From Patescibacteria group bacterium (GTDB lineage: Bacteria; Patescibacteriota; Microgenomatia; UBA1400; PJMF01): a stretch of DNA of 64,000 nucleotides. The position numbers and the translations under genes are program-made. Every line of letters begins with the position of its first letter. Positions within the stretch are counted from its first letter, which is position 1. The DNA lies in contig BOKX01000001.1 in NCBI GenBank assembly GCA_016861205.1, positions 200,539 through 264,538 on the forward strand, written 5' to 3'. This document shows positions 10,601 through 50,089 of the stretch, piece after piece. The notes under the pieces were generated by a model. The model was given only the letters and a program-made list of their open reading frames with translations. It made no database searches and was not told the origin of the DNA.

Positions 10601-10751
10601 AACCATCTTCCCGTTTAAAAACCGACTCGAGCCATTGTTGAAACGGTGTCCGATAGGACATCTCCGAGCTATTTTCATCCTCAATATACCTGGCAAGGCT
10701 TTGCAGATAGTGGGCAGTTGCCTCAGCGATTTGGGTGAATTGATTGATCAT
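7605..10751 (-). CDS. Type IIG (MmeI-like) restriction-modification enzyme: fused PD-(D/E)XK endonuclease + N6-adenine methyltransferase + specificity domain
   Basis: 1048 aa. N-terminal PDFVI...YIEVKK nuclease motif. MTase motif I VLDVATGTGTFL and motif IV GNPPY. Visibly AT-richer than flanking genes. Confidence 0.8.
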   Translation of the reverse strand: MINQFTQIAEATAHYLQSLARYIEDENSSEMSYRTPFQQWLESVFKREDGYLVQHDQRSIDGNKPDFVISRNKIPLLYIEVKKVGVDLEKIAKSDQATRYFGYTNLVITDYLTFYLFRNGHPYDESISLGTYHHGTQTVQPHPEQGERLARTLTDFVFSQKEPIKSGKHLAKIMGGKAQRIRENVIAFLAQPNEKNASLYKLKQVIQDHLVAELDIPHFADMYAQTLVYGLFAARYQDSTLESFTRQEARDLVPPSNPFLRHFFDHIAGANFPPRLDVIVTELCDVFSHADVNALISSYYSKSQTENFDEKDPIIHFYEDFLSEYDAAKKVEMGVFYTPQPVVKFIVRAVDELLKTEFGLNKGLADSSKRSIRADLQNAKGKIVKGNKEYHTVQVLDVATGTGTFLNEVVQHIHQQFAGQEGLWPTYAATELLPRLHGFELMMASYTIAHLKLGLTLRQTGVKDFPGRLGIYLTNTLEKPVDYAPQQALFGLLDSIAEESRQASRIKSEVPVMVVIGNPPYSGVSQNMFYTESDAYRVEPGGHQKLQERKHWLNDDYVKFIRFAETMIEKNGNGIVAMITAHGYIDNVTFRGMRWHLRNTFDEIYVLDLHGNSNKKETAPDGSKDENVFDIKTGVSILIGVKRQNSKPKKKLATVYKANQFGLRKEKLAFLNTASLTDVAWEELKPEVETWLPEVAGKSDYTTGINLAELFPLNTTGIVTMGDTFAIAKHKSELTSNITNFLNQQISAEELKTQFGLGKNYGQWINTNKAKIEFDQQKIVPILYRPFDLRYTYFDGNLIWRPRHKVMSQFLAGDNIGIGFSRTVTGSYAWNDVQVTRHVTEFGYMATRVGNGAPVAPLYIYYPDGTKQANLDPNIWTKLSNIAGKNTTAEEVLDYVYGYLHSPSYRAKFAPFLKTDFPRVPWPKSANQFWQIVELGTQLRKLHLLEATNQLTIETTYPITGDNTVAKYEFEPATQRVWINDEQYFGNVSHIAWKMFIGGYQPAQRWLKDRKGEKLDANDLAHYQIMIAVLKRTEELMHKIDAVISSTN

Positions 10752-18645: not shown

Positions 18646-18720
18646 GGTGCCCAACGAGACTCGAACCCGCGACCTCCGCTTTCACAGAGCGGCGCTCTAA
18701 CCAACTGAGCTATGGGCACC
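18646..18720 (-). tRNA. tRNA-His (anticodon GTG)
   Basis: Cloverleaf read by eye: an extra 5' G-1 paired with C73, D-arm TAGCTCAGTTGGTTAGAGC, anticodon loop CTGTGAA, T-arm GGTTCGAGTC. CCA is not encoded. Confidence 0.85.
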
Positions 18721-19440: not shown

Positions 19441-21429
19441 ATGCGTGGATCGAGACTTTTTGTATCAAGTGTTCTGGCGTTGGTGATGGTCGCCCTAACT
19501 ACTGTCAAAGCTCAGGCAGCCAGCTACTATGTGGACTCGAGTGCTGGTAATGACAGCAATAGCTGTCAGCAAGCCCAAAACCAAGCCACGCCCCGCCGAA
19601 CTGTGAACGGAGTTAACGGTTGTGGTCTCACGGCCGGTGATACGGTTTATTTCAGAGGCACTTTTGATCAAACACTGACACCAAACGCTAGCGGCCAAGT
19701 TTTATTGGCCACCACCAACATCGCTCGGGTAAGTGGCTCAGTAGTTGAGTTCAACTCTGCCCCACCTGCTACCTCAGCTACCAGCGACTTTGTGTATGTG
19801 TATGGCAGTCGCAAAGGTAACAGCGGCGCATTTAAGGTGATCTCGAGTAGCGGCAATCAGGTCACTGTGGATACCAGCAATTTACCAGGTGGAGCATTTG
19901 TGACAGAGACGGCCACCGAGCCAGGCGATTTGCAAGCCGCTGTGGTGCGGCCGCTTCACTTCACTGCCTGGGACAAAAATAACCCGCCAACCTGGAATCT
20001 CAATTCAGCCATGTACTACGGTTTTAATCGACCAGCTGTCATGTTGAGTTACTTGCGGTCAATGTCCGGAGCGAACAATGAGGTCTGGGGAGCAGTCTAT
20101 CTCGACGGTGGTAACAGCGGCAGCAACGACTACTTTGTGATGGATCACGTTGAGATTCAGAACGCTGCGACAGCCGTCGGTTTGTCTAACAACGATTTCC
20201 AAGCCAACTACGGTATTTTGCAACACAACCACTTCCACAATGTCGGTTACAACGGTGGTGTTTCGGACGAAATTATTTATTGGGGTAACTTTTTGCAAAA
20301 CCAAAAACACCATGATTTTGTTCAGATGATGTACAACCGTATTGGGCCCCAAAAGCGCTTCAATGTGAGTAACACTTCTGGAGCTCAAGCTGTCGGTGAT
20401 GGTATCGAGATCAAAGCCAGCTCGCACAATCCGACTGTGTGGGGCAACATTATCACCGGTATTCACCTCACAACTGGGTGTGATGACTCACCCATCAGAT
20501 CAGCTGGTTCAAATGGCTTCATCGCCAATAACTACATCAGTGACGTGTATCCCCAGCCAGAAAACATTCCTGGTTGTGGTATCTCGATTGTCGAAGGCGC
20601 AGCCGGCGCCCAAGGTACCATTGTTGCTAACAATGTGATCGCCAATGTCAAAAGTGTTGGTATCCGAGTTTTTAACACCAGTAACGTTCAGATCTTGAAT
20701 AACACGATTTACAACATTCGTTCTATTCAAGGTTGCTGTGCAGAGGAATCAGCCGGTATTCAAGTTCATACCTATGGTGCAGCAGCCACGAATGTGGTGG
20801 TGCGCAACAACATTGTCCACACGGCACCAGTGGGCATTGGTCGTTATCCTTGGGACTTGAATGGCTCGTTTAGCATGAGTTTGGGCAACAACATTGTGTT
20901 TAATGCTGGTACGCCTTGGGGTGTTGGTGCTACCCAAACCAGTACCGATCGGGTAGCTGATCCTGGCTTGGTCAATCCAGCCGGTGGTAACTTCAGCTTG
21001 AGCGCCAACTCAACTGCCATCGGCGCTGGAGCCGATTTATCAAGTGTCTTCACTGTTGATAATCACAATGCTGCCAACCCAACTCAACAAACAGCTGTGC
21101 CCGTGACTCGTAGTGGTAGTTGGGAGATTGGTGCATATGATGCAGGCGGCACAGGTGGAGGTGTTACTCCAGTTCCGTCACCTTCAGTAGTGCCAGTGAC
21201 ACCTACACCCTCACCAAGTGTGCAGCCAACTCCCAGTCCCAGCGCTGAGTGTCTGGCAGCTGACTTGAATCGTGACGGGGTGGTGAATACGGCTGACAGA
21301 ACCTTACTAATAGCGGACTTTTTCAAGCGTTTGCCAAGCCTAGCAGCAGCCGATATTAACGCAGATGGTATTGTGGATGTGACCGACTATGGACTGTTAG
21401 TGCGCGTTTTTGGGCAAAGCTGTCAGTAG
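19441..21429 (+). CDS. secreted right-handed beta-helix (pectin-lyase-fold) protein with Pro/Thr/Ser linker and C-terminal dockerin
   Basis: Signal peptide MRGSRLFVSSVLALVMVALTTVKAQA. Repetitive N-x-x-(I/V) beta-helix rungs. PT-rich linker. Duplicated Ca-binding dockerin segments DLNRDGVVNTADRTLL and DINADGIVDVTDYGLL. Confidence 0.75.
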   Translation: MRGSRLFVSSVLALVMVALTTVKAQAASYYVDSSAGNDSNSCQQAQNQATPRRTVNGVNGCGLTAGDTVYFRGTFDQTLTPNASGQVLLATTNIARVSGSVVEFNSAPPATSATSDFVYVYGSRKGNSGAFKVISSSGNQVTVDTSNLPGGAFVTETATEPGDLQAAVVRPLHFTAWDKNNPPTWNLNSAMYYGFNRPAVMLSYLRSMSGANNEVWGAVYLDGGNSGSNDYFVMDHVEIQNAATAVGLSNNDFQANYGILQHNHFHNVGYNGGVSDEIIYWGNFLQNQKHHDFVQMMYNRIGPQKRFNVSNTSGAQAVGDGIEIKASSHNPTVWGNIITGIHLTTGCDDSPIRSAGSNGFIANNYISDVYPQPENIPGCGISIVEGAAGAQGTIVANNVIANVKSVGIRVFNTSNVQILNNTIYNIRSIQGCCAEESAGIQVHTYGAAATNVVVRNNIVHTAPVGIGRYPWDLNGSFSMSLGNNIVFNAGTPWGVGATQTSTDRVADPGLVNPAGGNFSLSANSTAIGAGADLSSVFTVDNHNAANPTQQTAVPVTRSGSWEIGAYDAGGTGGGVTPVPSPSVVPVTPTPSPSVQPTPSPSAECLAADLNRDGVVNTADRTLLIADFFKRLPSLAAADINADGIVDVTDYGLLVRVFGQSCQ

Positions 21430-21439
21430 GTGCTGAGGT

Positions 21440-22927
21440 ATGACTACACATCGTCTTACTCATCGTTGGTTCGTGTTCTTGGGTATTCTCCTCACGGCAG
21501 TTGCTTTCCGTCTCTACAAAATTACCAGTGAACCACTGGACTGGCATGCCTTCCGGCAAGCTGACACCGCGTCTGTGACGCGTGAGTATGTGAAGCACGG
21601 AATTAATTGGTTGGTACCTCATTATCAAGATTTAGCTAATATTCAATCAGGTCTCGACAATCTCGAGGGCTATCGGATGGTCGAGTTCCCGCTCGTCAAC
21701 GCGCTGGTGGCATGGATCGTGATGAACACGGGCTGGTCGCTGGTGGTTACCAGCCGGATAGTATCGGTCATTTTTTCGCTGGGAACCCTGATCTGTTTGT
21801 ATTTACTGGTGGAAAAGCTATCTGGCAAAACGATAGCTCGTTTAACGGCTCTCGTGTATGCGGTACTGCCGTATGCGGTTTTTTACTCGCGAGCTATTCT
21901 GCCTGAACCAGCCATGCTCTTCTTCTCTACCCTGTCCCTATGGGCATTTCTGAACTGGCTACAGCTCAAAGCAAACGGTCGCTGGCTGTGGTATCTGGTG
22001 AGTTTTATGGCCTTGTTGATCGGTTTGCTGCTCAAGCCAAACGTAGCATTTCTAGTACCAATTTATGCTGGGTTAATCGCGTATCACGAATGGCCACTCA
22101 AAGATCGCTCACTGGGTGGATTGTTGCGGAAAGCCAGTTACTACATGCTAACGGTTGGTGCTGGTATGGTAGTGGCGATGGGAACATTAGTTTGGTGGCG
22201 AAAGTGGATTGAACAGTATCCTTCTGGCATCCCGGCTCTTGACTGGTTGTTTAATGGTAACGGCATTCGTTTCCGACCTGCCTGGTTCCGGTGGCTGGGT
22301 TGGGAGCGATTGACGAAGCTCATCTCTGGCTATTTTGGGGTGCTGGTGTTGCCGTTTAACTTTCTTGATCATCATAAAGATCTTTGGGTCTATAGTACTT
22401 GGTGGCTCGGCATCGCTGTTTACTTGTCTGTAATCGCCACTGGCAACGTTCAACATGACTACTATCAAGTTTTGGCTGTACCCATTATCTGTATCTCGTT
22501 GGCACGTGGCAGCGTAGCACTGTACCACTGGCTAAGAGCTAAAGTTGGCATCAGGCCGGCCTTTGGGTTGGTGGCTGGACTCCTGGTTTTGGGTTGGTGG
22601 TTCGCTTGGCAGGCGGTTAAAGGTTACTACTCGATTAATCATCCCGAGTACATCATGGCGGGACAGGCAGTAGATCGGTTGACACCACCAGACGCATTGG
22701 TTATTGCCCCGGCCTTTGGGGACACCCAATTTTTATTCCAGACCAACCGCCGTGGTTGGCCAATTGGCTTTGAGATCGAAGACAAAATTGCGAAAGGTGC
22801 GCAGTTTTACATCACCACCAGTGATGATGATGAAGCCCGACGTTTGTCCAAGGAATACACGGTGGTTGAGAAAACGGAAACGTATTTGTTAATTGATCTG
22901 CGGCAAAAACAATCTCAGCCCAAATAA
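21440..22927 (+). CDS. GT39/GT83-type (ArnT/PMT-like) lipid-carrier-dependent glycosyltransferase
   Basis: 495 aa polytopic membrane protein with the N-terminal motif region typical of ArnT/PMT (YKITSEPLDWHAFRQADTA...). GAGG right before the ATG. Confidence 0.7.
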   Translation: MTTHRLTHRWFVFLGILLTAVAFRLYKITSEPLDWHAFRQADTASVTREYVKHGINWLVPHYQDLANIQSGLDNLEGYRMVEFPLVNALVAWIVMNTGWSLVVTSRIVSVIFSLGTLICLYLLVEKLSGKTIARLTALVYAVLPYAVFYSRAILPEPAMLFFSTLSLWAFLNWLQLKANGRWLWYLVSFMALLIGLLLKPNVAFLVPIYAGLIAYHEWPLKDRSLGGLLRKASYYMLTVGAGMVVAMGTLVWWRKWIEQYPSGIPALDWLFNGNGIRFRPAWFRWLGWERLTKLISGYFGVLVLPFNFLDHHKDLWVYSTWWLGIAVYLSVIATGNVQHDYYQVLAVPIICISLARGSVALYHWLRAKVGIRPAFGLVAGLLVLGWWFAWQAVKGYYSINHPEYIMAGQAVDRLTPPDALVIAPAFGDTQFLFQTNRRGWPIGFEIEDKIAKGAQFYITTSDDDEARRLSKEYTVVEKTETYLLIDLRQKQSQPK

Positions 22928-22935: not shown

Positions 22936-23009
22936 TGTGCCCGGCGGGACTCGAACCCACGACCTACTGCTTAGAAGGCAGTTGCTCTATCCAGCTGAGC
23001 TACAGGCAC
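22936..23009 (-). tRNA. tRNA-Arg (anticodon TCT)
   Basis: Acceptor GTGCCTG/CGGGCAC, D-arm TAGCTCAGCTGGATAGAGC, anticodon loop CTTCTAA, T-arm GGTTCGAGTCC. Confidence 0.85.
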
Positions 23010-23119: not shown

Positions 23120-25096
23120 ATGGCCAGTAAAGCCGAGATCATTTCCTACCTGAAACAAATTACGAATGAACGAAGTCCTCAGGGGCAAAAATCAGCAGAG
23201 CAGTTACTTGACATGCTGTGCCCGCGCGAGTTTAAAGCGGTCGTTGAATTACAGGCACGAGCCTTAGGTAATCAACAATTTCTGGTCAAGAATTTTCCCG
23301 ACACCACCAAGCCTTTACCAGACAGAATCTATGTGCCGGCGGGCGAGGTCGACAGCCAAGATTTTTTGGGTGCATATACTTACTCGATTCTCTTGTACCG
23401 CCTTGGTTTAATGCAGCTCACCCAGCAAGTCCAAAAAGTAGCCGAAAGTTTTGATCCTGGTTTGAGTCGATCAATTAAACAGATTTACATATATTGGTTG
23501 GGTTTATGGGATGATGCTTTTCCGCGGGCTCCACTTTGGGTCAGTGAAACGCAACCCCTCACTGTTCTCCATCCTGAACTACCACCCGAGGTTAAAACAT
23601 TTTTGCAGAAACAAGGTATCCGACCTGAAAGTGACTCGCTCGTTAGTTCTTTATGGCGTCTTACTAATCGAAAAGCAGTTGTCACAGCCAAAAACTTGCC
23701 TGATTTCACAGCTTTTTTTAAGTACTTCTTGCAAGAGACTAACCGACGACCGAATCCTCACCAAGATGAGCGCCAATCGATCGGTTATCCGATGTTGTTA
23801 GCCTATCGTCAACTTGAGAACGCAATTCCCTCTTACGTTCAGGCTGGTATTAGACCGCAAATCGAGCAGTTGGCTGAGTTGCTCGGCAGTTTTCCACGAG
23901 AGTTAGTTCGAAAATTAGCTACTCAAGCTAGTGATCTGATCTGGGACGAGCTTGATGCTTTCAAATTACTTGATCAAGTTTTGACCGATGCCGATAGTTT
24001 GCCAGCCTTTGCTGCTGTCAAAGCACTTGACGAAAGTATACAAGGCAAGCAAAGTGACTTTACGGTTTTTGATCTGTACGCCAACCTGCGACATTTAGTG
24101 AGTGAAACTGATTCTCAAGAATTGTTTGAGTGGTACTCGGCTAACTTAGACCTTATTTATCAAGTACTCCAAGACAAACGAAACTTGTGGATAACAACGG
24201 CAGCCACCTGGAATGAAGTAGCCGGAAACCAGTTCTGGGGCGACTCTGCCCCTGAGCTTAACTGGGAGAAAGTGCGGTCACAGGCGCAGCGAATCCGAGA
24301 ACTCCAAAAACGACAAGTGACGCGCATTATTTTTGGCTCAAAACTGCTCTCTGATGAAAACTTTGGTTTTCAGACTGGTACTATTTTTGCCAGACTCGAT
24401 TTTGACTGGAAACAAGACCGAGCCAATTGTCAGTTGTTCGTCTTCGATGAAGGTGAAGCTGGTGATCAATTAACTGACCGAGCACTGGCGGTGTTAGATT
24501 TTGTTATTGAAATAAAATCCGGACAGGTGACGTGGCGGGTAGTAGATCCTGAGAACGTTTCTCAACGGTCAGCGTACAACATTAGTCAGTTTATTTCGGC
24601 AGGGTTGTCACTTGAGTTGGTTAAGCTAGAGGAAGATGAGTCCAGATTACGTGAGGCAATTCGTTTGTTACTGCAAAGTTTGCCAGAAAATTCTGCTAAT
24701 ACTCGGCCATATCTAGGTCGCAGACGGAAAAAAACGACCGATGCGGAAGAACCAACTACTGAAATTACGCCAACTTCTCGACCAAAGTCTATTGTCGTAG
24801 ATGGTGAGTTGGCCGATTTGATTGTCGGTACTTTTGATCATTCGTTGCCAGTCGAAATTCAGGCCAAGTTGGACCGTTATCATCTCGCTGCTGAACAAGG
24901 CCATAACGTAGCTGATGGAAAACTACTAACTCAGACTAACTACTACGCGCACTTCATGCCACCGAATGGTGGCCGGGTGTGGCAGGTATCACTCAACATC
25001 CGTGGGGCCGAGTACCGAGTTCTTGCGGAAGTTAATCCCAATGATGAGTCACAGGCGATCGCCTACGCGATAGTGCCTCGTAACCAAATGGGCTAA
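23120..25096 (+). CDS. large hypothetical protein with C-terminal RelE/ParE-like domain
   Basis: 658 aa with no recognisable N-terminal domain. A basic linker (GRRRKK...) precedes the last ~90 aa. That C-terminal stretch (MPPNGGRVWQVSLNIRGAEYRVLAEVNPNDESQAIAYAIVPRNQ) aligns in pattern with RelE (MPDCYKIKLRSSGYRLVYQVIDEKVVVFVISVGKRE). TGgTATAAT extended -10 upstream. Confidence 0.55.
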   Translation: MASKAEIISYLKQITNERSPQGQKSAEQLLDMLCPREFKAVVELQARALGNQQFLVKNFPDTTKPLPDRIYVPAGEVDSQDFLGAYTYSILLYRLGLMQLTQQVQKVAESFDPGLSRSIKQIYIYWLGLWDDAFPRAPLWVSETQPLTVLHPELPPEVKTFLQKQGIRPESDSLVSSLWRLTNRKAVVTAKNLPDFTAFFKYFLQETNRRPNPHQDERQSIGYPMLLAYRQLENAIPSYVQAGIRPQIEQLAELLGSFPRELVRKLATQASDLIWDELDAFKLLDQVLTDADSLPAFAAVKALDESIQGKQSDFTVFDLYANLRHLVSETDSQELFEWYSANLDLIYQVLQDKRNLWITTAATWNEVAGNQFWGDSAPELNWEKVRSQAQRIRELQKRQVTRIIFGSKLLSDENFGFQTGTIFARLDFDWKQDRANCQLFVFDEGEAGDQLTDRALAVLDFVIEIKSGQVTWRVVDPENVSQRSAYNISQFISAGLSLELVKLEEDESRLREAIRLLLQSLPENSANTRPYLGRRRKKTTDAEEPTTEITPTSRPKSIVVDGELADLIVGTFDHSLPVEIQAKLDRYHLAAEQGHNVADGKLLTQTNYYAHFMPPNGGRVWQVSLNIRGAEYRVLAEVNPNDESQAIAYAIVPRNQMG

Positions 25097-25106: not shown

Positions 25107-25574
25107 TTACGCGGGTTTGAGCGAACTCTGATTCACTTGCTCGAGCAATTTGCCTGTGGCTTTTTGCCAGTTTTCGATTTCACTTTTTGAGAGTGGAGCA
25201 AATAGATTATTTTCGAGTTCAAAAATAATTTTGAAAGCTGCTTGAATTAAAGTTTTACCTTGTTCTGTCAGGCTAATCTGATTCGCACGTCGGTTAGCTG
25301 GATTCTCAATCCGATTGATGAGGTGTTTATGCTCAAGGGTTTCAATTAACCGACTAATGGCGGCTTGTGTGAGTTGCAAATGATCGGCCAACTCACGCTG
25401 AGTAATAGATTGACACAGCTCAAGGAAGACTAAGACTTTGAACTGAGCATACGTGACTTGGCACTCATGTTGTAGGACCAGGTCAGCGTGTTTAATTAAG
25501 CGGGCGGCCAGTTGCACTAAACTAGCTGCTTTGAGCTCAAACAGCCGACAGTTATTACTAGGTATTTTTGACAT
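25107..25574 (-). CDS. MarR-family transcriptional regulator
   Basis: Winged-HTH region QRELADHLQLTQAAISRLIETLEHKHLINR...RRANQISLTEQG. Start taken at ATG 25574 (155 aa). The other ATGs at 25592 and 25607 and the TTG at 25634 are alternatives. Confidence 0.7.
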   Translation of the reverse strand: MSKIPSNNCRLFELKAASLVQLAARLIKHADLVLQHECQVTYAQFKVLVFLELCQSITQRELADHLQLTQAAISRLIETLEHKHLINRIENPANRRANQISLTEQGKTLIQAAFKIIFELENNLFAPLSKSEIENWQKATGKLLEQVNQSSLKPA

Positions 25575-25593
25575 CAAAGTGTATTTTAACATA

Positions 25594-25622
25594 TTGACAA
25601 TTAACATGTTAAGTATTATGAT
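25594..25622 (+). promoter_or_regulatory. near-consensus sigma70 promoter TTGACA-N17-TATGAT for the efflux operon, with embedded 12-bp palindrome TTAACATGTTAA (putative MarR operator)
   Basis: TTGACA at 25594-25599 and TATGAT at 25617-25622. The perfect palindrome at 25601-25612 sits in the spacer, between the divergent marR and efflux genes. Confidence 0.5.
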
Positions 25623-25667
25623 GCACTGTCTCAAAAAAGACTATCAAAAAGCATCAATTTACATCTT

Positions 25668-27146
25668 ATGAAACCCACTTTTTCTACCTTACGACGCCCA
25701 AATTTGAAGCCTATGGTTGTTGGTTGGCGGCGGTTGACTGCCCGAGCTACTGCCTTCATTCAAATCCGACCATTTAGTAGTTTTCTCGGTTTACTGGCCG
25801 TGATGGTTGCTCTGGTGGTAATTGGCAACTGGTTGCGAAAGCCGCCAGCGCAGCCGACAGCTGCTGAGCCAGAGCCAAAACCAGTTAGTACGTACACTTT
25901 GGGTGGTAACCCTACCGTTAGTGTGCAAGCTAAGGTCGACAAATCTGGTGTTATCACTGTGGTCGCCCAAACTGCTGGAATTGTGAATAAACTAAATGTG
26001 ACTGAAGGTCAAAGTGTTTACAAAGGTCAGCGTTTAGTGAGTTTAGCCAGCAACTATCAAGGTGCCAACGCTGCCAGTTTAACTCGCCAACTGAGTCAAC
26101 GCAGTTACCAACACACCCTTGATACCTACGACACTCAAAAGGCCCTCATTCAACAACAGCGAGAGCTAGCTGACAAAAATGAAGTTCAAGCCAAAGAACT
26201 CCGCGCCATCGGTCGTGAAGCCGAATCTGACACTCGAACGCTCATTGATTTGAATAACGAAATCGTTTCTTACCTTGATCAGCAACTGGCAAGTTATGAA
26301 GCTTCAAATGTGAATGGCAGTAACGATGCGGTCATCAACGACCTCAAAGGAGCCAAAGCGCAAGTTTTAGGTGGCTTAAGCGGGTTAAAGGCTAGCCTTA
26401 ACGCCAGCGAGTATACCAACAGCGAAGATGAAGAAATTGCTGGTATTACTGGTTTAGTGAGAGCCACTACCCACAAACAACTCGATCTGCAAGAGAAAGC
26501 CCTCGACCTAAGTCGTGATGTGGCATTGCTAAACGTCCGTTTAGCCCAAGTTGGTGAATCATTAATGTACCCTGCTGCACCGAGTGCCGCAGTGGTTGAA
26601 CGAGTTCATGTTAGCGTCGGCCAAGCAGTTAGCCCTGGTATGCCAATCGCTACCCTGACTGCTAAACAAGGCACAGTTAACTTAGAAGCTTTAGTAGCTG
26701 CTCCAATCGCCAAACAAGTTTCGCTTTTAACACCTAGTGTCTTGCTCATCGATGGTCAACAACTGAAAGTGACACCTCGGTATGTGAGTACAGAGCCAAC
26801 GAATGGCAGTCTGTACTCAGTGTTGTTTACACTATCTGATGAGTTGGCTGCTCAAGTCCACGACGGAGAGTTGGTCAGCTTGACACTAACCTTGGGTGCC
26901 CGAGCTAATCAAGATGCCTACATTCCACTTGATGCTGTTTACTACAGCCAAAGTGGGGCTTATGTGTTCATCGCTGATACAGCTCAAACCCCGGCTCGCG
27001 CTAAAGTTCAGAAAGTGACTTTAGGTCATGTGTATGGACCAATGGTCGAAGTTATTGATGGTTTGCCAGCTCAAGTAATGGTGATTTTAGATCGCAATGT
27101 GGTTGATACTGATCCAGTGCAACCAGCCGGTGAAATTGCTCAGTAA
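25668..27146 (+). CDS. efflux membrane fusion protein (HlyD/RND periplasmic adaptor family)
   Basis: N-terminal TM, a long coiled-coil region, and a biotin-lipoyl-like segment (VVAQTAGIVNKLNVTEGQSVYKGQRLVSLAS). Confidence 0.7.
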   Translation: MKPTFSTLRRPNLKPMVVGWRRLTARATAFIQIRPFSSFLGLLAVMVALVVIGNWLRKPPAQPTAAEPEPKPVSTYTLGGNPTVSVQAKVDKSGVITVVAQTAGIVNKLNVTEGQSVYKGQRLVSLASNYQGANAASLTRQLSQRSYQHTLDTYDTQKALIQQQRELADKNEVQAKELRAIGREAESDTRTLIDLNNEIVSYLDQQLASYEASNVNGSNDAVINDLKGAKAQVLGGLSGLKASLNASEYTNSEDEEIAGITGLVRATTHKQLDLQEKALDLSRDVALLNVRLAQVGESLMYPAAPSAAVVERVHVSVGQAVSPGMPIATLTAKQGTVNLEALVAAPIAKQVSLLTPSVLLIDGQQLKVTPRYVSTEPTNGSLYSVLFTLSDELAAQVHDGELVSLTLTLGARANQDAYIPLDAVYYSQSGAYVFIADTAQTPARAKVQKVTLGHVYGPMVEVIDGLPAQVMVILDRNVVDTDPVQPAGEIAQ

Positions 27147-27173: not shown

Positions 27174-30100
27174 ATGCCACGCAGTTCAAAAACTACCAAG
27201 CCAGCTCAATCAACTCAAAGTAGTGATCAATCCTACATGAGTCGGTTAAAGTTCGACCCCAAGTTACTTGGTGGTTGGATTTCACAGTATCTGAACAATA
27301 TTCGGATTGTGGTTTTGTTGGTCCTGACCATCTTACTGATGGGCACAGTTAGTTACTTCAGTTTGCCGAAACGTCTCAATCCAGAAGTTGAAATTCCGAT
27401 CGTCAACGTGGTGACTATTTTGCCAGGTGCTTCGCCAGAAGACGTTGAGTCATTGGTGACAGTTCCTATCGAGAACAAACTGCGAAGTGTCGAAGGACTC
27501 GACACCATGACCTCTGTTTCTAATCCAAACGTGTCGGTCATTACCATGCAGTTTACTTCCAACATCAAGCCAGATAAGGCTAAGGATGATGCGCAAGCTT
27601 TGGTTGATGCAGTGACTGATTTGCCTGAGGATGCCCAAGCGCCACAGGTTAGTGCCCTCGACTTTGAAGACCAACCAGTTTGGACATTTGCCGTGACTAG
27701 TTCTGGAGATATACCAACTTTAATGAATTTTGCCCATCACTTGGAAGATCGGTTAGAAAACTTGTCCAAAGTTGACCGAGTTGAAACAGCTGGTTTAGAG
27801 CAGGATCAGGTTTTGGTCGAAGTTAGTCCTGAGAAACTACAGCAATATGGTCTGAATCCGCTCACCTTGGCCCAGGCAGTTCAAAAAGGAACAGGTTCAT
27901 ATCCTGCTGGTTCAATTACGACCACTACCAATAGTTTTGCAGTCACTATTAATCCTAGTTTAACCTCGCTTGAGGATTTGCGTCGCTTGCAACTTAATGT
28001 AGATGGTCAGGTGGTTAGCCTCGGTGAACTCGCAACAATTACTCGTCGTCCACCAAGTAACCAAGCAGTGGCCTTGTTGGGTAAACCACAAGCTGAGGCT
28101 CGCCGAACAGTGACTTTTTATGTGTACAAAACCAGTGCAGTCAGTATCGATGAAGCTGGCAAACAGATTGAAGAGTCTGTTCACGAAGCGCTGACTGAGC
28201 GTCCAGGTCTATTTGAAGTGACGACGATCTCAAATACAAGCGAAGAAATTGCAGATCAATTTGCCGACTTGCTGGTTGAGTTTCGATCCACGATCATCTT
28301 AGTGTTCGCCTGTTTACTGCTATTCTTGGGTTTCCGCCAAGCTTTGATTTCATCACTGACTGTGCCACTTACCTTTTTGAGTGCCTTTATCTTCATGAAC
28401 ATTATTGGCATGTCGATTAACTTTTTGTCTTTGTTTGCTTTCTTGTTGGCGTTAGGTCTGTTGGTCGATGACACAATCGTTGTGGTATCGGCCATGACTG
28501 CGTACTACAAATCTGGCAAGTTTAATCCGTTGGAGACTGGTTTGATGGTCTGGCGAGATACGATCGTGCCAATTTGGTCAACGACGATCACAACAATTTG
28601 GTCCTTCGTACCTTTGTTGTTAAGTACTGGCATTATTGGTGAGTTCATCAAGCCTATCCCAGTGGTGGTGACAGTGACCATGATTTCATCGACGGCTATT
28701 GCTGTGTTTGTAACATTGCCAATCATGATTATCTTGTTGAAACCGAAACTGGCTCATCGTGTGGTGGTGTTGCTGAAAGTGGTTGGAATTTTAGCTGTTG
28801 TAGCTGGTTTGTTTGCAGTGGCCAAAGGTAACCCGCTGTTACCACTTATCATTGGTTTGTTTGGGTTTTGGCTGATTGTGGTTAAGCTGGTTGGTAAACA
28901 AGTTGCGGATCGAGTAGCGAAGTTCTTCTCACAAGCCCGCTTCAAAAAAATTGGTCAAACTTTGCACAAGTATGCGAATCACGGTTTGATTGATGTCGAA
29001 GGCTTTGCCAACGGTTACTACAACGTTATAACTCGTGTTTTAGAGAAACGAAGCAGCCGTCTAAAAGTGATTTTCGCAATTGTCATTTATGCCATCGTCG
29101 CATTTGCGTTACTGCCACTTGGTTTAGTGAAGAATGAGTTCTTTCCCAAATCTGACCAAACTACTGTTTACGTGAACTTAGAGTTACCGGCTGGTACTCG
29201 GCTTGAACACAGTTACGAAGTGGCTGAACGATTTTTGCCTCAGTTGCAAAACATTGAACACACTGAGTTTGTAGTGGCAGAGGTTGGCAAAAGTTTTGAC
29301 AGCAATGGCAGCCGAAGCAATACGGATAACTCAGTTCTGTTCTCGCTACATTTGCCCGCTGAAGATGAGCGGCCAGTTAGCTCTATCAACATTGCCCAGC
29401 ACATCCGTGATACGTTCACAACTTTTGAAGGGGGAAAAGTTTCGGTACTTGAATTGAGTGGTGGTCCGCCAGCAGGTGCTGACGTGCAGATTAAATTGTT
29501 GGGTGATGATCTGGGCAAACTGGATGGTTATGCCAATCAAATTATGGATCATCTTGAACAGCAACCTGGTTTAACCAACGTCGACAAAAGTATTAAAACC
29601 GGCACCACCCAGCTCGTCTTTGTTCCAAATCAGAGTCAATTGGCTGAAGCTGGTTTGAGTGCTGATCAGCTTGGTTTGTGGTTGCGAACGTATGCAAGTG
29701 GTTTCACGCTCGACTCAGTAACCTGGCTGGGAAATGGAACAGATAAATCTGATGTCGTGTTCAAGTTAACAACTGATCCAGACGCGAACGGTTTATCCAG
29801 TTTGTCGATAACCTCAATGTCAGGTCGTAGTTACCCATTAAGTTCACTCGGTCACTGGGAGTTGCGGCCAAACCCAACTCAGATTACGCGCGAAAATGGC
29901 AAACGAACCATCTCGGTTTCAGCTAGTAGTGTGGCGGGTTACTCAATCAGCGAGCAGAACGCGGAACTACTTGAGTACACTAAGAGCCTCAACTTACCAG
30001 ATGGGTATGAGTGGGCCACCGGTGGTGTAAATGACGAAAACCAGAAGTCAGTCAACTCAATCTTGCAGGCCATGGTGGTCGCAGCAATTTTGATTTTGGT

Positions 30101-30536
30101 GACGATGGTCATTCAGTTCGGTTCATTCAGGCAAGCTTTCATCGTGCTGTTGGTGATTCCGTTGGCTGTTTCCAGTGTTTTCTTTATTTTTGGTCTGACC
30201 GGAACGCCATTGTCATTCCCTGCTTTGATTGGTGTATTGTCATTGTTTGGAGTGGTCGTGACCAACTCAATGTTTATTGTCGACAAAATCAACTTGAATC
30301 AGCGTGAAGGCATGAACCTGAAAGCTGCAATTGCTGACGCTGGTGCTAGCCGGTTAGAGCCAATTATTTTGACTAAACTGTGTACAGTGCTTGGCCTTTT
30401 GCCAATTACGATTGCTGACCCATTGTGGCGCGGTCTCGGTGGAGCAATCATCTCCGGTTTACTGCTGTCGAGTACGATTATGTTGCTCTTCATTCCAGTG
30501 GTGTACTACGAGTTTTTCAAAAACGAAGCACGATAA
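27174..30536 (+). CDS. RND-superfamily efflux transporter permease (AcrB-like)
   Basis: 1120 aa. Two 6-TM bundles separated by large hydrophilic loops, typical RND topology. Immediately downstream of the adaptor gene. Confidence 0.8.
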   Translation: MPRSSKTTKPAQSTQSSDQSYMSRLKFDPKLLGGWISQYLNNIRIVVLLVLTILLMGTVSYFSLPKRLNPEVEIPIVNVVTILPGASPEDVESLVTVPIENKLRSVEGLDTMTSVSNPNVSVITMQFTSNIKPDKAKDDAQALVDAVTDLPEDAQAPQVSALDFEDQPVWTFAVTSSGDIPTLMNFAHHLEDRLENLSKVDRVETAGLEQDQVLVEVSPEKLQQYGLNPLTLAQAVQKGTGSYPAGSITTTTNSFAVTINPSLTSLEDLRRLQLNVDGQVVSLGELATITRRPPSNQAVALLGKPQAEARRTVTFYVYKTSAVSIDEAGKQIEESVHEALTERPGLFEVTTISNTSEEIADQFADLLVEFRSTIILVFACLLLFLGFRQALISSLTVPLTFLSAFIFMNIIGMSINFLSLFAFLLALGLLVDDTIVVVSAMTAYYKSGKFNPLETGLMVWRDTIVPIWSTTITTIWSFVPLLLSTGIIGEFIKPIPVVVTVTMISSTAIAVFVTLPIMIILLKPKLAHRVVVLLKVVGILAVVAGLFAVAKGNPLLPLIIGLFGFWLIVVKLVGKQVADRVAKFFSQARFKKIGQTLHKYANHGLIDVEGFANGYYNVITRVLEKRSSRLKVIFAIVIYAIVAFALLPLGLVKNEFFPKSDQTTVYVNLELPAGTRLEHSYEVAERFLPQLQNIEHTEFVVAEVGKSFDSNGSRSNTDNSVLFSLHLPAEDERPVSSINIAQHIRDTFTTFEGGKVSVLELSGGPPAGADVQIKLLGDDLGKLDGYANQIMDHLEQQPGLTNVDKSIKTGTTQLVFVPNQSQLAEAGLSADQLGLWLRTYASGFTLDSVTWLGNGTDKSDVVFKLTTDPDANGLSSLSITSMSGRSYPLSSLGHWELRPNPTQITRENGKRTISVSASSVAGYSISEQNAELLEYTKSLNLPDGYEWATGGVNDENQKSVNSILQAMVVAAILILVTMVIQFGSFRQAFIVLLVIPLAVSSVFFIFGLTGTPLSFPALIGVLSLFGVVVTNSMFIVDKINLNQREGMNLKAAIADAGASRLEPIILTKLCTVLGLLPITIADPLWRGLGGAIISGLLLSSTIMLLFIPVVYYEFFKNEAR

Positions 30537-30609
30537 CAACTTCGATTGACATTGGTATAGTGATAGATATTGACAGCCTGGTGCATAGTAATCATAGTTA
30601 TTAGCAACT

Positions 30610-31833
30610 ATGAAAAAATACTTGCTGCCCCTGTTTTTCTTTTTAGTTAGCTTGCTTACCCTTGTTGTACCCAAACCGGTACTAGCTGCCGAAAACATTC
30701 ACATTGACAGTGCTGAGTGGTTAGACTCGGAAGTAATTCGCTTCCACTACTCCGCAAACACTTATGCTCCTGGTGGGATTTCAGTGGTTTTCACTACGAG
30801 TGATGGTAGTCGAACGTATCATGCAGGAGCACAAGATTATCCGACCAGCGCTACCACAGGCTATGTGGATCTTGATTCAAACGGCGATATCAACACCCTG
30901 TACTGGGGTGCTGACGCTGGTTACACCCGCTACTACGCTTTAGCTGGCTGGGGTGACAACGACAATATGTCAAATACAGTAAGGTTGCCAGCATACGTGG
31001 CGCCGCCGGAAATTTCTATCTCTGCCAGTCCGAGCGCAGGTACCCATGAGATTGGAGATGCTTTCTCAGTTGATGTCAGAATCCAGAGTCAAGATGGAGC
31101 CTTCAACGCTGCTCGGGCGAACCTAGCCATATCTTCAAACTTGACGTTACTCAATATTGTGACACCTCAATCAGGTGCTTGTAACCTACAGTACACCGAT
31201 TCACCTACTGTAAGCTCACCGTCATTTGCAGGTGCCATTTATGGGGGTTCATCAACAGACTGTACAGCTTTTACCTTAGTTCTTGAGGCAAATGAGGTCG
31301 GTACAGGTACTGTTACTTTGAGTAACGGTTCCATCAAGTCATACACGGATAACAGTGAGATCTTGACAGGAGTGGTTAACGGCAGCTTTAGTTTGGTGGC
31401 TGCCACACCAGAGCCAACACCACCTGTAGTTGATTTCAGTATCACTAATCAACTCAAGACATACTTGGAAAGCTTCACTTTGTCAGGTATGAAGTTTGAG
31501 TACGTGACAGCTATTAGCGTGGATGGTTCCAGCACCGCTTCAGCCTACCCAACTAGTACTTCATGGACACATCCTGTCTCCTTAGCCATTGGCCCCAATG
31601 AATTCACAGTGGCCGCCAGTGTGGGCAGTACCGAGTCAAGTTCGCAACAAGTGACTGTGACGCGGCACACTCTTGGAGACATTAACGGTGATGGTGAAGT
31701 CGATCTGATCGATGCTTCTCTCTTCGCTGTTGACTGGGACAAGACTTCCAACTTAACCTATCTTCTGTCGGATATGAATAACGACGGAAACGTTAACTTG
31801 ACTGACTTGTCAATCTTGGCTAAGTTACAGTAA
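30610..31833 (+). CDS. secreted protein with cohesin-like beta-sandwich domain and C-terminal dockerin
   Basis: Signal peptide MKKYLLPLFFFLVSLLTLVVPKPVLA. Central domain with a cohesin-like pattern (G..FSVDVRIQS...FNAA...PSFAG.IYGGSSTDC..FTLVLEA...G.VTL). Dockerin repeats DINGDGEVDLIDASLF and DMNNDGNVNLTDLSIL. Confidence 0.6.
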   Translation: MKKYLLPLFFFLVSLLTLVVPKPVLAAENIHIDSAEWLDSEVIRFHYSANTYAPGGISVVFTTSDGSRTYHAGAQDYPTSATTGYVDLDSNGDINTLYWGADAGYTRYYALAGWGDNDNMSNTVRLPAYVAPPEISISASPSAGTHEIGDAFSVDVRIQSQDGAFNAARANLAISSNLTLLNIVTPQSGACNLQYTDSPTVSSPSFAGAIYGGSSTDCTAFTLVLEANEVGTGTVTLSNGSIKSYTDNSEILTGVVNGSFSLVAATPEPTPPVVDFSITNQLKTYLESFTLSGMKFEYVTAISVDGSSTASAYPTSTSWTHPVSLAIGPNEFTVAASVGSTESSSQQVTVTRHTLGDINGDGEVDLIDASLFAVDWDKTSNLTYLLSDMNNDGNVNLTDLSILAKLQ

Positions 31834-31861
31834 GTGCTGAATCTGCCCTAGATTGAGTCAC

Positions 31862-32785
31862 ATGCGAAAAGTGTTGATCGCGATCGTTATTCTGAGTAGC
31901 TTGATACTTCTCTGCCCCAGCTCTGCGTATGCAGCTGGGGCAGTTATGCAACTTGATCCTCACTCTGGCGACTATGGGACTGAGTTTACCACTCAGCTCA
32001 GAGTGGTTGGCCAAGGGGTTAGTTTCAATGCAGCTGCCGCCACAGTCGTTGTCTCCCCAACCTTACGAATCAAAGAGGTAATCTACGGCGATTGCAACTT
32101 TTCATTTCTCAAAACACCCACCACGAACAACCCATCATTTTCTGGGGTGATCCTGTCCGGGTCGGAAGACAGTTGCAGTGTTTACACACTGCGTTTGGTT
32201 CCGATTAAAAAAGGCAGTGCTGCTATTACGGTCACAGACGCTTCAGTAAAGCAGTTTGGCGATGCTGCAGAGATTCTCCAGTCGGTTAAGAATGCTGAGT
32301 TCACGCTGACTGGTGAAGTTGTTTTCGATGTGCAGCCGGCAGCCAGTGCAGATGCCGATACTTACACAACAGTTGTTAACGTGATTCACGATGCTCAGAC
32401 CCCGGCCTCGGACGTTAAAGTAACCCTTGTGGCAGTCACCAATGCTGGGACTGTTTCGCAGCAGTCTGCTACCACGAATCAGTTGGGGCAAGTCACATTT
32501 AACAATTTATCGGCTGGTCTTTATCAAATCCAAGTTTGGAATCAAGAACAAGAACTGGCGCAAGTGTTAGTTACGATCGGTGGTGACACCTCGCAGTTCA
32601 TGTTTACTATCGACCTGAGCCAGCAAACGACAAACCCATTGCTCAAACCGTCCACTGATCCGACAGATATTGAGCCTCAAACAAAATGGTCTTGGTGGAG
32701 GTATGCCGTTGTCGCAGCCGTTGCAGGGATGCTGGCCACAGCCGCAACCACAGTCCTGATGTTCCACTTCAAACGAACACGATAG
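31862..32785 (+). CDS. secreted cohesin-like domain protein with transthyretin/CarboxypepD_reg-like domain and C-terminal membrane tail
   Basis: ATG at 31862 gives the signal peptide MRKVLIAIVILSSLILLCPSSAYA; the track start is TTG. The N-terminal domain is a clear paralog of the cohesin-like domain of the upstream gene (FNAAAATVVVSP...NPSFSGVILSGSEDSCSVYTLRLVP...GSAAITV). The C-terminus is WWRYAVVAAVAGMLATAATTVLMFHFKRTR. Confidence 0.55.
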   Translation: MRKVLIAIVILSSLILLCPSSAYAAGAVMQLDPHSGDYGTEFTTQLRVVGQGVSFNAAAATVVVSPTLRIKEVIYGDCNFSFLKTPTTNNPSFSGVILSGSEDSCSVYTLRLVPIKKGSAAITVTDASVKQFGDAAEILQSVKNAEFTLTGEVVFDVQPAASADADTYTTVVNVIHDAQTPASDVKVTLVAVTNAGTVSQQSATTNQLGQVTFNNLSAGLYQIQVWNQEQELAQVLVTIGGDTSQFMFTIDLSQQTTNPLLKPSTDPTDIEPQTKWSWWRYAVVAAVAGMLATAATTVLMFHFKRTR

Positions 32786-32799: not shown

Positions 32800-33075
32800 T
32801 TAAGCGTTCTTGGCTTTAGCAGCTCTGGCTTTAGCTTTGACCTGTTTACTAACTTCTTTGACAGCCACTTTTGCCACTTTTTTGCTTTTGCGAACCACTT
32901 TTTTAGTGGTGGGGCTTTTCTCGATTTTTTTGGCTAGTTTTTTAGTGCGCGTGGTGACTTTCTGCAGTTCCTGTTCCGCTTGTTGGCGGTTTTTCTTATC
33001 ACTCAGGAACACGGCAGCGGCCCCAGCGGCAGCCCCGATTAACAGGGTGAAGAGTCCGTTACCTTTTTTGGCCAT
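32800..33075 (-). CDS. YtxH-like small membrane-anchored Lys-rich protein
   Basis: N-terminal GLFTLLIGAAAGAAAVFL followed by a lysine-rich helical tail. GGGGAG RBS. Confidence 0.5.
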   Translation of the reverse strand: MAKKGNGLFTLLIGAAAGAAAVFLSDKKNRQQAEQELQKVTTRTKKLAKKIEKSPTTKKVVRKSKKVAKVAVKEVSKQVKAKARAAKAKNA

Positions 33076-47989: not shown

Positions 47990-50089
47990 TTACTCTCCTT
48001 TTTGGTTAAATACTGTAATCAAGAAGGCTATGTGGTCTTCAAGTGGTTTACCAATCAGTTCCGCACCTCGAGTAATATCTTCGCGACTTACGTTGGCTGC
48101 AAAAGATTTATCTTTGAGCTTTTTCTTGACGGACTTGATCTCCATGCCGACAAAACCGTCAGGTCGCATCAGCGACACTGCGTGTAAGAAACCAGACAGT
48201 TCGTCACAAGCAAAGAGGTAGCGCTCGAAAAGTGTCTCCGGTTCTCGCCCTGTTCGCTCAGGAGCGTGGGCGGCAATGGCATTTCGCAACTCAATTGGGT
48301 ACTCACTGAGCCACTCACCAATAGCTTTGTTGGGGTGTTCATCTGGAAAAGCTTCCCAGTCTACATCGTGGAGCAAGCCGGCTTGGTACCAGAGCTCGGT
48401 AGCCTCGCCGAGTTCACGAGCATAGGCTTCCATGGCTTGGGCCACCATCTGCATATGGTGTTTGAGTGCTGGATTTTGGACGTGTTGGTCAAGCAAAGAC
48501 TCAGCTTGTGCTCGTGGTGGTAGTGACTGAGCTGGACCAGTCGATACGACTGGAGCTACTGCAGCGGTTTTTTTAGCAGCCACTGGTTCTTTCAAGCCAT
48601 AAATCTCTTTGGTCGTTGAGTCTAGCTTGTGCTTGAGTTGTGGGAACAGTGTCCCCTCGCGAGCAGTCACGTTTTCCAGGAACCAGAACAACCGTTCGCT
48701 GTGCGCATAGCCTGAGGTCGGTGGCATACCAAACTCCAGCATCTCGACAAAGTCGATGTCGAGCATCTGTGCCTCGTCATCACCCTGATCGCGGGCGGCC
48801 TGTTGGTCTTGGAACCGAGCCAGCTGATCGAGTGGATCATTTAGCTCTGAGTAGCCGTTGCCCAGTTCACTGCCAGCAATGATGATGTGGAACCGTTGGG
48901 TCAGCTCAGGATTGTCGAGTTTTGATTTGGCTAACGGTGACATGAACTTGGGTTCATTGACCAAGAAAGCCGGGCCCGAGATAGTTTTGCGGATGGTTTT
49001 CCAGAGATTATCGATCAAGCGTTGGCGGTTAACTAGGCCATCGAGCTTGATGCCGAGTTCCCTGACTTTTGCCATCATAGTTTCATCGCTGTCGGTGAAG
49101 ATATCGATGCCGAGCTTCTCTTTGATGATGTCGGGGTAACTAATCTCGACCCATTCTTGGCTGAGATCAAACGTATGCTCACCTTTGGTGAAAGTAGTGC
49201 GACCATAGACTTTTTGGGCGATGGTGCGGACCATGTCTGAAACCAAGCGCATATTATCTCGATAGTCGGCGTACGCCCAGTACCACTCGATCTGGTAGTA
49301 CTCTGGTAGGTGTTCATCACTCAAGCCTTCGTTGCGGAAGTTGGGGCCGATAGTGAAAACCTTTTCAAATCCACCACCGATCAATCGCTTCTGGTACAGC
49401 TCAGTCGAGATTCGTAAAAAGAAGTCCTGATCAAGCGCGTTCATGTGGGTGACGAATGGTCGAGCATCAGCGCCACCAGTCACGTGCTCCAAAACGGGAG
49501 TTTCAACCTCAATAAAGCCGTGTTCGGCCATGAAGTCACGATTGGCTTTCCAGAAAGCGGCTTTGCGCTCAAACATTTGCCGGCGCTCTGGGTTGATGAG
49601 AAGGTCAACGTAGCGACGACGGAATACAATCTCGGGATCTTTGAGACCTTCCCAAGAGTCAGGGAGTGGTCGCAGCGTTTTGGTGAGCAAGCGAATAGTT
49701 TTCAGCAAAAGTGAGATTTCACCGCGTTGTGTCTTGGTTACCTCACCTGTCGCCTCGACGATGTCGCCAGCATCGAGTAAATTGAGGTGTTCAAAACCGA
49801 GGGTTTGCTTCGAGACGTCTGTCGTTTCTAAGGTGTTATCACGAATATATAGCTGAATTTTACCCGATGTATCAACTAAGTCAGCGAACATAAGATGACC
49901 ATGATCACGCAAAGTCATTAACCGACCCGTCAATGTCACAGTCTGATTCTCAAGATTTGAAAACTCCTTGACTACAGTTTGGCACAGGTGGGTTCGATGA
50001 CTCTCCGCTGGAAAAGGGTCAATGCCCATCTCACGCAGTTTGTTTAGCTTTTCCAAGCGTTGCTGTCGCATTTCGGTCAAACGTGACAT
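47990..50089 (-). CDS. lysS: lysyl-tRNA synthetase (class II) fused to C-terminal HD-domain (YqeK-like phosphohydrolase)
   Basis: N-terminal OB fold plus class II catalytic core (~485 aa, ending ...REGTLFPQLK). Then an Ala/Pro linker and an HD domain (KHHMQMV...AGLLHDVDWEAF...). 699 aa total. Confidence 0.85.
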   Translation of the reverse strand: MSRLTEMRQQRLEKLNKLREMGIDPFPAESHRTHLCQTVVKEFSNLENQTVTLTGRLMTLRDHGHLMFADLVDTSGKIQLYIRDNTLETTDVSKQTLGFEHLNLLDAGDIVEATGEVTKTQRGEISLLLKTIRLLTKTLRPLPDSWEGLKDPEIVFRRRYVDLLINPERRQMFERKAAFWKANRDFMAEHGFIEVETPVLEHVTGGADARPFVTHMNALDQDFFLRISTELYQKRLIGGGFEKVFTIGPNFRNEGLSDEHLPEYYQIEWYWAYADYRDNMRLVSDMVRTIAQKVYGRTTFTKGEHTFDLSQEWVEISYPDIIKEKLGIDIFTDSDETMMAKVRELGIKLDGLVNRQRLIDNLWKTIRKTISGPAFLVNEPKFMSPLAKSKLDNPELTQRFHIIIAGSELGNGYSELNDPLDQLARFQDQQAARDQGDDEAQMLDIDFVEMLEFGMPPTSGYAHSERLFWFLENVTAREGTLFPQLKHKLDSTTKEIYGLKEPVAAKKTAAVAPVVSTGPAQSLPPRAQAESLLDQHVQNPALKHHMQMVAQAMEAYARELGEATELWYQAGLLHDVDWEAFPDEHPNKAIGEWLSEYPIELRNAIAAHAPERTGREPETLFERYLFACDELSGFLHAVSLMRPDGFVGMEIKSVKKKLKDKSFAANVSREDITRGAELIGKPLEDHIAFLITVFNQKGE

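Follow-up and report, generated by a model that had tools for sequence, protein, structure and literature searches.

Within the 64,000-nucleotide stretch of a Patescibacteria group bacterium analysed here (contig BOKX01000001.1, positions 200,539 to 264,538 of the forward strand; hereafter the window), two adjacent genes on the + strand, A and B, appear to form a conserved, non-cellulosomal cassette with which bacteria of the Candidate Phyla Radiation (CPR, or Patescibacteria), of the Microgenomates type, would clip proteins non-covalently onto their cell surface. From comparisons of sequences and gene order, we put the probability of this reading at roughly 0.65. Gene A (30610-31833) encodes a 407-residue protein, identical to the public protein P0010, that comprises a signal peptide, a payload module, a cohesin, an immunoglobulin-like (Ig-like) module and a dockerin; we refer to this arrangement as A-type. 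Gene B (31853-32785) encodes 310 residues when translated from a TTG codon, and its product, which defines the B-type, comprises a signal peptide, a cohesin, a prealbumin-like stalk and a transmembrane anchor. In the public call for gene B (P0001), translation begins instead with the ATG at 31862, which yields 307 residues. We favor the reading in which A plugs into B because of the identities of the modules, the strict pairing of the genes and the nearly 1:1 ratio of their families, the invariance of the dockerin, and the precedent of a pair of proteins from the archaeon Archaeoglobus fulgidus.

In the mechanism that we propose, Sec-type signal peptides would export both proteins, and B would be fixed in the cytoplasmic membrane by its C-terminal transmembrane helix and basic tail, such that its stalk and N-terminal cohesin face outward. 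A would be secreted; its variable N-terminal payload is followed by a cohesin from the subfamily to which that of B belongs, then by an Ig-like spacer and finally by a calcium-type dockerin. By analogy with known pairs, this dockerin most likely docks onto the cohesin of B, which would tether A and its payload to the cell. The cohesin of A could then receive an additional partner, which might be a second A-type protein or one with another kind of dockerin, e.g., the beta-helix protein encoded at 19441-21429. In host-dependent bacteria with small genomes, such a cassette would plausibly serve the attachment to hosts or substrates and the harvesting of nutrients.

Identity of the shared domain

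A preliminary description of this region, made from the sequence alone, proposed that two neighboring secreted proteins share a paralogous domain of about 130 residues that resembles a cohesin. Both open reading frames are present on the + strand, and the paralogy is firm: residues 141-262 of A align with residues 36-152 of B at 34% identity (BLASTP, E = 3e-21), which is far above chance. Searches of the PDB with the single sequences of A and of B found no cohesin. We therefore turn to evidence from the family, for which an alignment of 55 homologs of the shared domain (alignment A1) supplied both a profile and the basis of an AlphaFold2 model. When the family profile was compared with the PDB, its three best matches were the ScaB cohesins of Ruminococcus flavefaciens, at a marginal E of about 3e-3.

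The structural evidence is stronger. The AlphaFold2 model of A residues 125-270 is all-beta, with a mean predicted local distance difference test (pLDDT) of 96.3 and a predicted template-modeling score (pTM) of 0.88, and a Foldseek search of the PDB with this model returned cohesins at every rank from 1 to 41, including types I, II and III as well as non-cellulosomal representatives (E from 1.7e-8 to 4e-5; template-modeling scores of 0.5-0.74). The best of these matches was 2xdh, a non-cellulosomal cohesin from A. fulgidus (E = 1.7e-8, template-modeling score of about 0.7, about 20% identity). At the level of fold, the domain is a nine-stranded beta-sandwich that lies nearer to solved cohesins than to other beta-sandwiches, and the suggestion that it is cohesin-like, as opposed to a generic Ig-like domain, is thus upheld by the model.

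A second line of evidence comes from homologs with two cohesins. Several A-type proteins (P0081, P0094, P0099, P0105, P0114 and P0121) carry tandem copies, the first belonging to the same subfamily as the domain in A and the second being of the classical type that Pfam recognizes and that lacks the cysteine pair described below. The domain of A matches these second copies with E-values of 1e-9 to 1e-5 (e.g., 1.3e-9 for P0081 and 1.1e-7 for P0114), and the second copy of P0114 scores 34.4 bits against the Pfam Cohesin model (cut-off 24.1), spanning model positions 9-137 of 139. Because these tandem copies act as a bridge, the shared domain is linked by sequence to accepted cohesins, albeit only transitively. 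The classical second copy may accept a different dockerin.

The subfamily is distinguished by an FNAA(Q)A motif in strand 3, a PSF(A)G motif in strand 6 and a near-invariant pair of cysteines, C191 and C218 in A, that may form a disulfide. Residues common to the A- and B-type cohesins include FNAA.A in strand 3, SF.G in strand 6, the cysteine pair and G107, and each type additionally bears signatures of its own. In A, the module occupies residues ~134-262 (31009-31395, + strand), as delimited by the AlphaFold2 model, the Foldseek matches and the comparison of the profile with the PDB; in B, it occupies residues ~29-155 (31937-32317, + strand), based on its similarity to the cohesin of A and to the family cohesin profile (E = 2.8e-45). 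Judged by its modeled fold, the shared domain is a divergent cohesin subfamily overlooked by standard annotation; and because standard domain annotation misses it, the public labels of these proteins read only "dockerin-containing" or "hypothetical".

The dockerin and the constant tail of protein A

The C-terminus of A had been described as a duplicated dockerin, and this assignment is secure. The type I dockerin (residues 355-405; 31672-31824, + strand) scores 33.2 bits against Pfam Dockerin_1 (PF00404), well over the curated cut-off of 22.9, and both of its calcium-loop motifs, DINGDGEVDLID and DMNNDGNVNLTD, are intact and conform to the duplicated D-x-[ND]-x-D-G-x(5)-D pattern. In the structural model each of the two calcium-binding loops is followed by a helix (model residues 104-112 and 135-144), and the family profile of A-type dockerins matches the 2y3n_B dockerin in the PDB (E = 2.2e-6). 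Type I dockerins whose repeats are similar can bind in two alternative orientations; since the two repeats of the A dockerin resemble each other, it may have the same capacity.

Immediately upstream of the dockerin is an Ig/Fn3-like beta-sandwich (residues ~275-352; 31432-31665, + strand) that continues straight into it, and the two were modeled as a single confident unit (pTM 0.78). This arrangement, in which a beta-sandwich abuts a dockerin without an intervening linker, is like that of the type II and type III X-Doc dyads; no solved X-module or X-Doc structure matches the module itself. Between the cohesin and the Ig-dockerin unit there is a short Pro/Thr linker.

The N-terminal portion of A is of a different character. 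After a signal peptide read from the sequence (residues 1-26; 30610-30687, + strand; MKKYLLPLFFFLVSLLTLVVPKPVLA followed by AE), there is a payload module (residues 27-125; 30688-30984, + strand) that lies in the variable region of the family and that A has in common only with its closest relative, P0011 (68% identity). All A-type homologs examined have hydrophobic N-termini, and the stretch ahead of the cohesin ranges from 1 to 1,038 residues. When 80 A-type proteins were surveyed with Pfam, these stretches proved to contain ConA-like lectins, propellers (of the sortilin type, Kelch, RCC1 and PQQ), LCAT/PGAP1 lipases, beta-helices, the glycoside hydrolases GH16 and GH44, and the carbohydrate-binding module CBM96, with many payloads having no match. 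The tail, by comparison, hardly varies: the whole run of cohesin, Ig-like module and dockerin is kept in 112 of 118 homologs, the dockerin itself shows almost no variation, and a cohesin and a dockerin occur together in all 139 of the A-type proteins collected, with a single cohesin in 59 of 64 A-type representatives. Because the payload is swapped while the tail is constant, the cassette looks like a general adaptor for surface display.

This pattern bears on the earlier view that A and B make up a scaffoldin and its anchoring protein. The notion of an anchor with a partner that docks onto it stands, being in accord with all eight of the gene pairs described below and with the A. fulgidus precedent, but A, to judge from the diverse payloads that its family bears on an invariant tail, is more of a cargo protein than a scaffoldin.

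Protein B as the predicted anchor

B begins with a signal peptide (31853-31933, + strand) that is conserved in B-type homologs and whose predicted cleavage site follows AYA at residue 27 in the numbering from TTG. Beyond the cohesin is a second beta-domain (residues ~168-250; 32354-32602, + strand) that resembles prealbumin and CarboxypepD_reg domains. Its matches in Pfam, to CarboxypepD_reg (1.7e-5), SdrD_B and SpaA, are all under the curated cut-offs; the CarboxypepD_reg family is also on record for several homologs, and the domain probably acts as a stalk.

The C-terminus of B had been noted as a hydrophobic segment with a basic tail, and the sequence bears this out, in that a predicted transmembrane helix at residues ~281-304 is followed by the tail HFKRTR (32693-32782, + strand). 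The helix is preceded by a short linker ending in a proline that is conserved. A helix and basic tail are present in all seven of the B-type neighbors examined and in at least 55 of the top 150 representatives of the family. Between the stalk and the helix is a Q..NPLLK motif (residues 258-265; 32624-32647, + strand), of which Q258, N261, P262 and L263 are invariant in an alignment of ten B sequences (alignment A2). The motif lies 12-15 residues from the helix, which is too distant to look like a classical sorting signal.

We considered whether B might instead be attached by a sortase. The window sequence "EPQTK" ahead of the transmembrane helix resembles a sorting signal, but it is unconserved in homologs, and B therefore lacks a sortase signal by this measure. 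NCBIfam yielded no sorting-domain match for B, alignment A2 contains no conserved LPXTG-type motif, and the Pfam search gave no SLH match. B is thus predicted to be a plain, C-terminally anchored type I membrane protein.

Conservation of the gene pair

At every one of the eight loci examined (the window, L001, L010, L011/L012, L013, L014, L015 and L016), the gene immediately after the A-type gene or genes has the same orientation and is of the B-type; its product has a signal peptide, a B-type cohesin, a C-terminal transmembrane helix and a basic tail. The surroundings of the pair differ from locus to locus, and include a resistance-nodulation-division (RND) pump in the window, glycosyltransferase or exopolysaccharide-type genes at L013 and L016, cell-division genes at L015 and insertion-sequence elements at L011.

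The families themselves are large. Homologs of A fall into more than 120 clusters, and those with names are labeled [quoted passage not shown] or come from Candidatus Levybacteria. When 1.84 billion cluster representatives were searched exhaustively with the profile, 4,545 matched at E<=1e-3, of which 960 reached <=1e-10 and 181 reached <=1e-30. Of the best 150 representatives, 64 were A-type and 55 were B-type in the strict sense, with about 12 additional B-types having longer cytoplasmic tails, which amounts to a ratio of roughly 1:1. The nine matches from a word-indexed search had suggested that the B family is rare, a view overturned by the exhaustive search. A scan of reference genomes with the single protein detected one true relative, at L001; the seven further hits of that scan matched by the dockerin alone.

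Most loci have just one A-type gene. At L016 (4192-12356 of a groundwater contig), three A-type genes occur in a row ahead of a single gene for a B-type anchor, and encode proteins of 405 residues, 1005 residues (of which 700 form an LCAT/PGAP1 lipase-like module) and 469 residues. Two close relatives, L001 (CAZDOJ010000001.1) and P0240, were deposited under the names "uncultured Gammaproteobacteria bacterium" and "Vitreimonas sp."; their gene content and SecA similarity indicate that both are probably mislabeled CPR genomes.

A candidate client of the cassette

When the window was scanned from end to end in six frames, using the family cohesin profile and a dockerin-loop pattern, exactly two cohesins and two dockerins were found. 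The second dockerin belongs to the beta-helix protein at 19441-21429 (+ strand), which the preliminary description had counted as the dockerin-bearing enzyme of the system and in which a dockerin is indeed recognized: a signal peptide is followed by a right-handed beta-helix (Pfam Beta_helix, 9e-9), a Pro/Thr/Ser linker and a Cys-flanked C-terminal dockerin (residues ~604-662; 21250-21426) that scores 29.2 bits against Dockerin_1 (cut-off 22.9). This dockerin is only 33% identical to that of A. The beta-helix protein is a plausible candidate for the third part of a cohesin-dockerin system within the window.

The gene immediately after that of the beta-helix protein (21440-22927) encodes a PMT_2-type, protein mannosyltransferase-like glycosyltransferase, and PMT_2 or glycosyltransferase family 2 (GT2) genes also flank the cassette at L013 (1039-3726) and L016 (12381-14942 and 20414-21410). 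The linkers of cellulosomal proteins are O-glycosylated, and the neighboring PMT_2 genes suggest that the Pro/Thr-rich linkers of the present proteins may be as well.

Alternative explanations

Some of our results weigh against a cassette in which A docks onto B. The preliminary description pointed to the Pfam Cohesin family (PF00963), and neither A nor B matches it directly, even at E<=1; the payload of A (residues 27-125) matches nothing in Pfam or the PDB and has no recognizable function; and B, at about 300 residues, may be too short to span a wall or an S-layer on its own. On the other side of the balance is the conservation of the docking module, in that a near-invariant dockerin is what would be expected if it has one conserved partner.

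That partner need not be the cohesin of B alone. A-type proteins could polymerize head-to-tail from a base formed by B, resulting in a non-covalent surface fiber that bears payloads, and a number of observations are congenial to this idea: all 139 of the A-type proteins pair a cohesin with a nearly invariant dockerin, the most conserved cohesin residues are common to the two types, L016 has its three A-type genes per B gene, and the single A. fulgidus dockerin reportedly binds both cohesins of that organism. However, the signatures specific to the A- and B-type cohesins could mean that they have different ligands, and most loci have only one A-type gene. We consider such chains possible but on balance unlikely. 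Somewhat more doubtful is the broader proposition that a self-extending surface polymer of this kind is widespread in the CPR, with B nucleating chains to which each A adds a payload and a fresh cohesin. If true, it would represent a pilus-like, modular fiber built of cohesin-dockerin contacts alone, with which ultra-small bacteria could make contact with a host or substrate, hold on to it and digest it. We are similarly doubtful of a two-tier scaffold, wherein A is an adaptor docked on B and its own cohesin receives the divergent dockerin of the beta-helix protein. This would parallel the type II and type I pairs of Clostridium thermocellum, and it is in keeping with the presence in the window of two subtypes of cohesin and of two dockerins that clearly differ, as well as with the secretion of the beta-helix protein and its possession of a Pro/Thr-rich linker like those of the A family. 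But A bears a payload of its own, unlike a pure adaptor, and the partnership with the beta-helix protein is not conserved in cis, since no protein with a dockerin of the other type is encoded within 10 kb of the cassette at any of the other seven loci.

The two remaining possibilities depart further from a docked A and B. Because the cohesin fold is a common beta-sandwich, the modules might not be receptors for dockerins at all, and might serve instead as structural or glycan-binding domains of adhesins; alternatively, the cohesin of A might cap the dockerin of the same molecule, the Ig-dockerin unit being only a short Pro/Thr linker away. A domain of fibrillar adhesins, CLIPPER, does appear among the weaker Foldseek matches, at rank 42, and 26 of the 55 family members weakly touch Pfam BatD. 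Yet the 41 matches ranked above CLIPPER are genuine cohesins, and the strict co-occurrence of an invariant dockerin with cohesins, both within the same protein and in the product of the neighboring gene, is hard to explain if the modules do not interact, all of which renders this alternative improbable. The notion that the two proteins belong to the RND efflux pump encoded upstream, as accessory or outer components, can be dismissed with more assurance. The genes are on the same strand as the RND gene and begin only 73 bp after it, but the gap holds a promoter-like site, and the RND and membrane-fusion protein (MFP) genes adjoin the cassette only in the window and in its identical copy, L009, with neither occurring next to it at L001, L010, L011, L013, L014, L015 or L016. 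Because the flanking genes vary between loci, the pump appears to be a coincidental neighbor, and with the linkage unconserved we reject an accessory role as exceedingly improbable. The docking of A onto B remains the reading that we prefer.

Comparison with known systems

The closest parallel is the pair of adjacent genes in A. fulgidus, where the C-terminal dockerin of ORF2375 (residues 432-506) has been verified experimentally to bind the N-terminal cohesin of ORF2376 (residues 29-162), an interaction strong enough to be exploited for engineered surface display (PMC9705933). The layout of the two systems is alike, in that a C-terminal dockerin is encoded beside a protein in which a signal sequence is followed by a cohesin (at residues ~29-155 of B); moreover, A. 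fulgidus is likewise not cellulolytic, and no solved structure matches the window cohesin better than its 2xdh. The likeness is one of structure and layout, and there are several differences. The host of the present cassette is a CPR bacterium as opposed to a hyperthermophilic archaeon; identity to 2xdh is only about 20%, with the near-invariant cysteine pair and the FNAA and PSFAG motifs being features of the A and B cohesins; and A and B belong to a large and widespread family with swapped payloads and a partner anchored by a transmembrane helix.

With the cellulosomes of clostridia and ruminococci, the cassette shares the two types of module, the logic by which a dockerin plugs into a cohesin, and the fixing of one cohesin protein to the cell. 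Linkers rich in proline and threonine are common to both, and some family members contain GH16 or GH44 domains. In cellulosomes, however, cargo carries dockerins only and cohesins are confined to scaffoldins, whereas the cargo of the present system has a cohesin in addition to its dockerin. There is no multi-cohesin scaffoldin, since proteins of this family have one cohesin and rarely two, and no CBM3; the anchor is a transmembrane helix in place of SLH repeats or a sortase; and the host is a CPR bacterium with a genome of about 1.15 Mb. A primary scaffoldin with several cohesins and a cellulose-binding module is also missing from the pair itself, with A and B having one cohesin each and neither containing a carbohydrate-binding module in the Pfam and six-frame scans. 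The A-B cassette is not a cellulosome.

Non-cellulosomal cohesins and dockerins are described as widespread (Peer et al. 2009, as cited in PMC9012536). In anaerobic methanotrophic (ANME) archaea, proteins that contain them are fused to varied domains and have been proposed to organize the cell surface or contacts between cells (Chadwick et al. 2022, PMC9012536). These proteins resemble ours in employing such modules outside cellulose degradation and in the variety of functional domains to which the modules are fused, but in some of them a dockerin is joined by as many as five cohesins, clients include substrate-binding proteins, and no conserved two-gene cassette with a transmembrane-anchored single cohesin is described for them (PMC9012536). 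Within the CPR, Southlakia epibionticum, the one saccharibacterium that is genetically tractable, has an essential envelope protein with a dockerin domain, SEML1_0315 (Wang et al. 2023, PMC10633639), which, like A, is a dockerin protein of the CPR cell envelope and for which there is genetic evidence of importance to an epibiotic lifestyle. Unlike A, it is a 927-residue protein of Ig repeats, and its neighbors are a tRNA gene and a hydrolase gene on the opposite strand, with no B-like gene; on the basis of its size, domains and neighbors, we rejected it as a member of the cassette. In full-text searches of the literature, we came across no account of cohesin-dockerin cassettes from CPR bacteria.

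Other features of the window

The promoter-like site in the 73 bp that separate gene A from the RND pump gene (TTGACA-17 nt-CATAGT; 30570-30598, + strand) is putative, having been recognized in a consensus scan by 10 of 12 matching positions. Upstream of the cassette there is a divergent MarR regulator (25107-25634, - strand), followed by an HlyD-type MFP (25668-27146) and an AcrB/RND transporter of 1120 residues (27174-30536). CPR bacteria are usually held to be without an outer membrane, and a tripartite-type RND pump is notable for a small CPR genome. Between the beta-helix and PMT_2 genes and the pump lies an open reading frame of 658 residues (23120-25096, + strand) that is also called as a gene in public data and has no match in Pfam or NCBIfam. 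Directly past gene B, on the opposite strand, a further open reading frame of 91 residues (32800-33075, - strand), which is called publicly too, specifies a hydrophobic N-terminus and a Lys-rich tail.

The remaining genes in the window, which is part of a 1.149-Mb contig, are mostly of housekeeping function, and include those for SecA, tRNA synthetases, ATP synthase, glycolysis and POR. The SecA sequence has 70-76% identity to proteins labeled Patescibacteria, Woesebacteria and Pacebacteria, which places the host among CPR bacteria of the Microgenomates type. Also present are a Type ISP restriction-modification enzyme of 1048 residues with an N6_Mtase domain and a Type_ISP_C specificity domain (7605-10751, - strand), a nitroreductase fused with a cytochrome b5-like haem-binding domain (12532-13713, + strand), and an unusual fusion of a class II tRNA synthetase of the Asp/Lys/Asn type with a C-terminal HD phosphohydrolase domain (47990-50089, - strand). 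The only Rfam matches were to two tRNA genes (18646-18719 and 22936-23009, - strand).

Implications

Pairs of cohesins and dockerins are among the strongest non-covalent protein contacts known, but a good understanding of them is confined to cellulosomes; the role of such modules in microbes that do not degrade cellulose has been a standing question since those of A. fulgidus were noticed in 1999. Bacteria of the CPR, with their very small genomes, are believed to rely on other cells, and how they organize their surfaces and attach to hosts is largely unknown. What is new here is a compact and testable unit of two genes, consisting of an anchor and the cargo that would dock onto it, which is conserved across many CPR/Patescibacteria lineages and involves a cohesin subfamily that has gone unannotated. 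If our reading is true, the cassette would furnish new orthogonal cohesin-dockerin pairs for protein engineering, and it would explain how CPR bacteria display interchangeable enzymes and adhesins on their surfaces.

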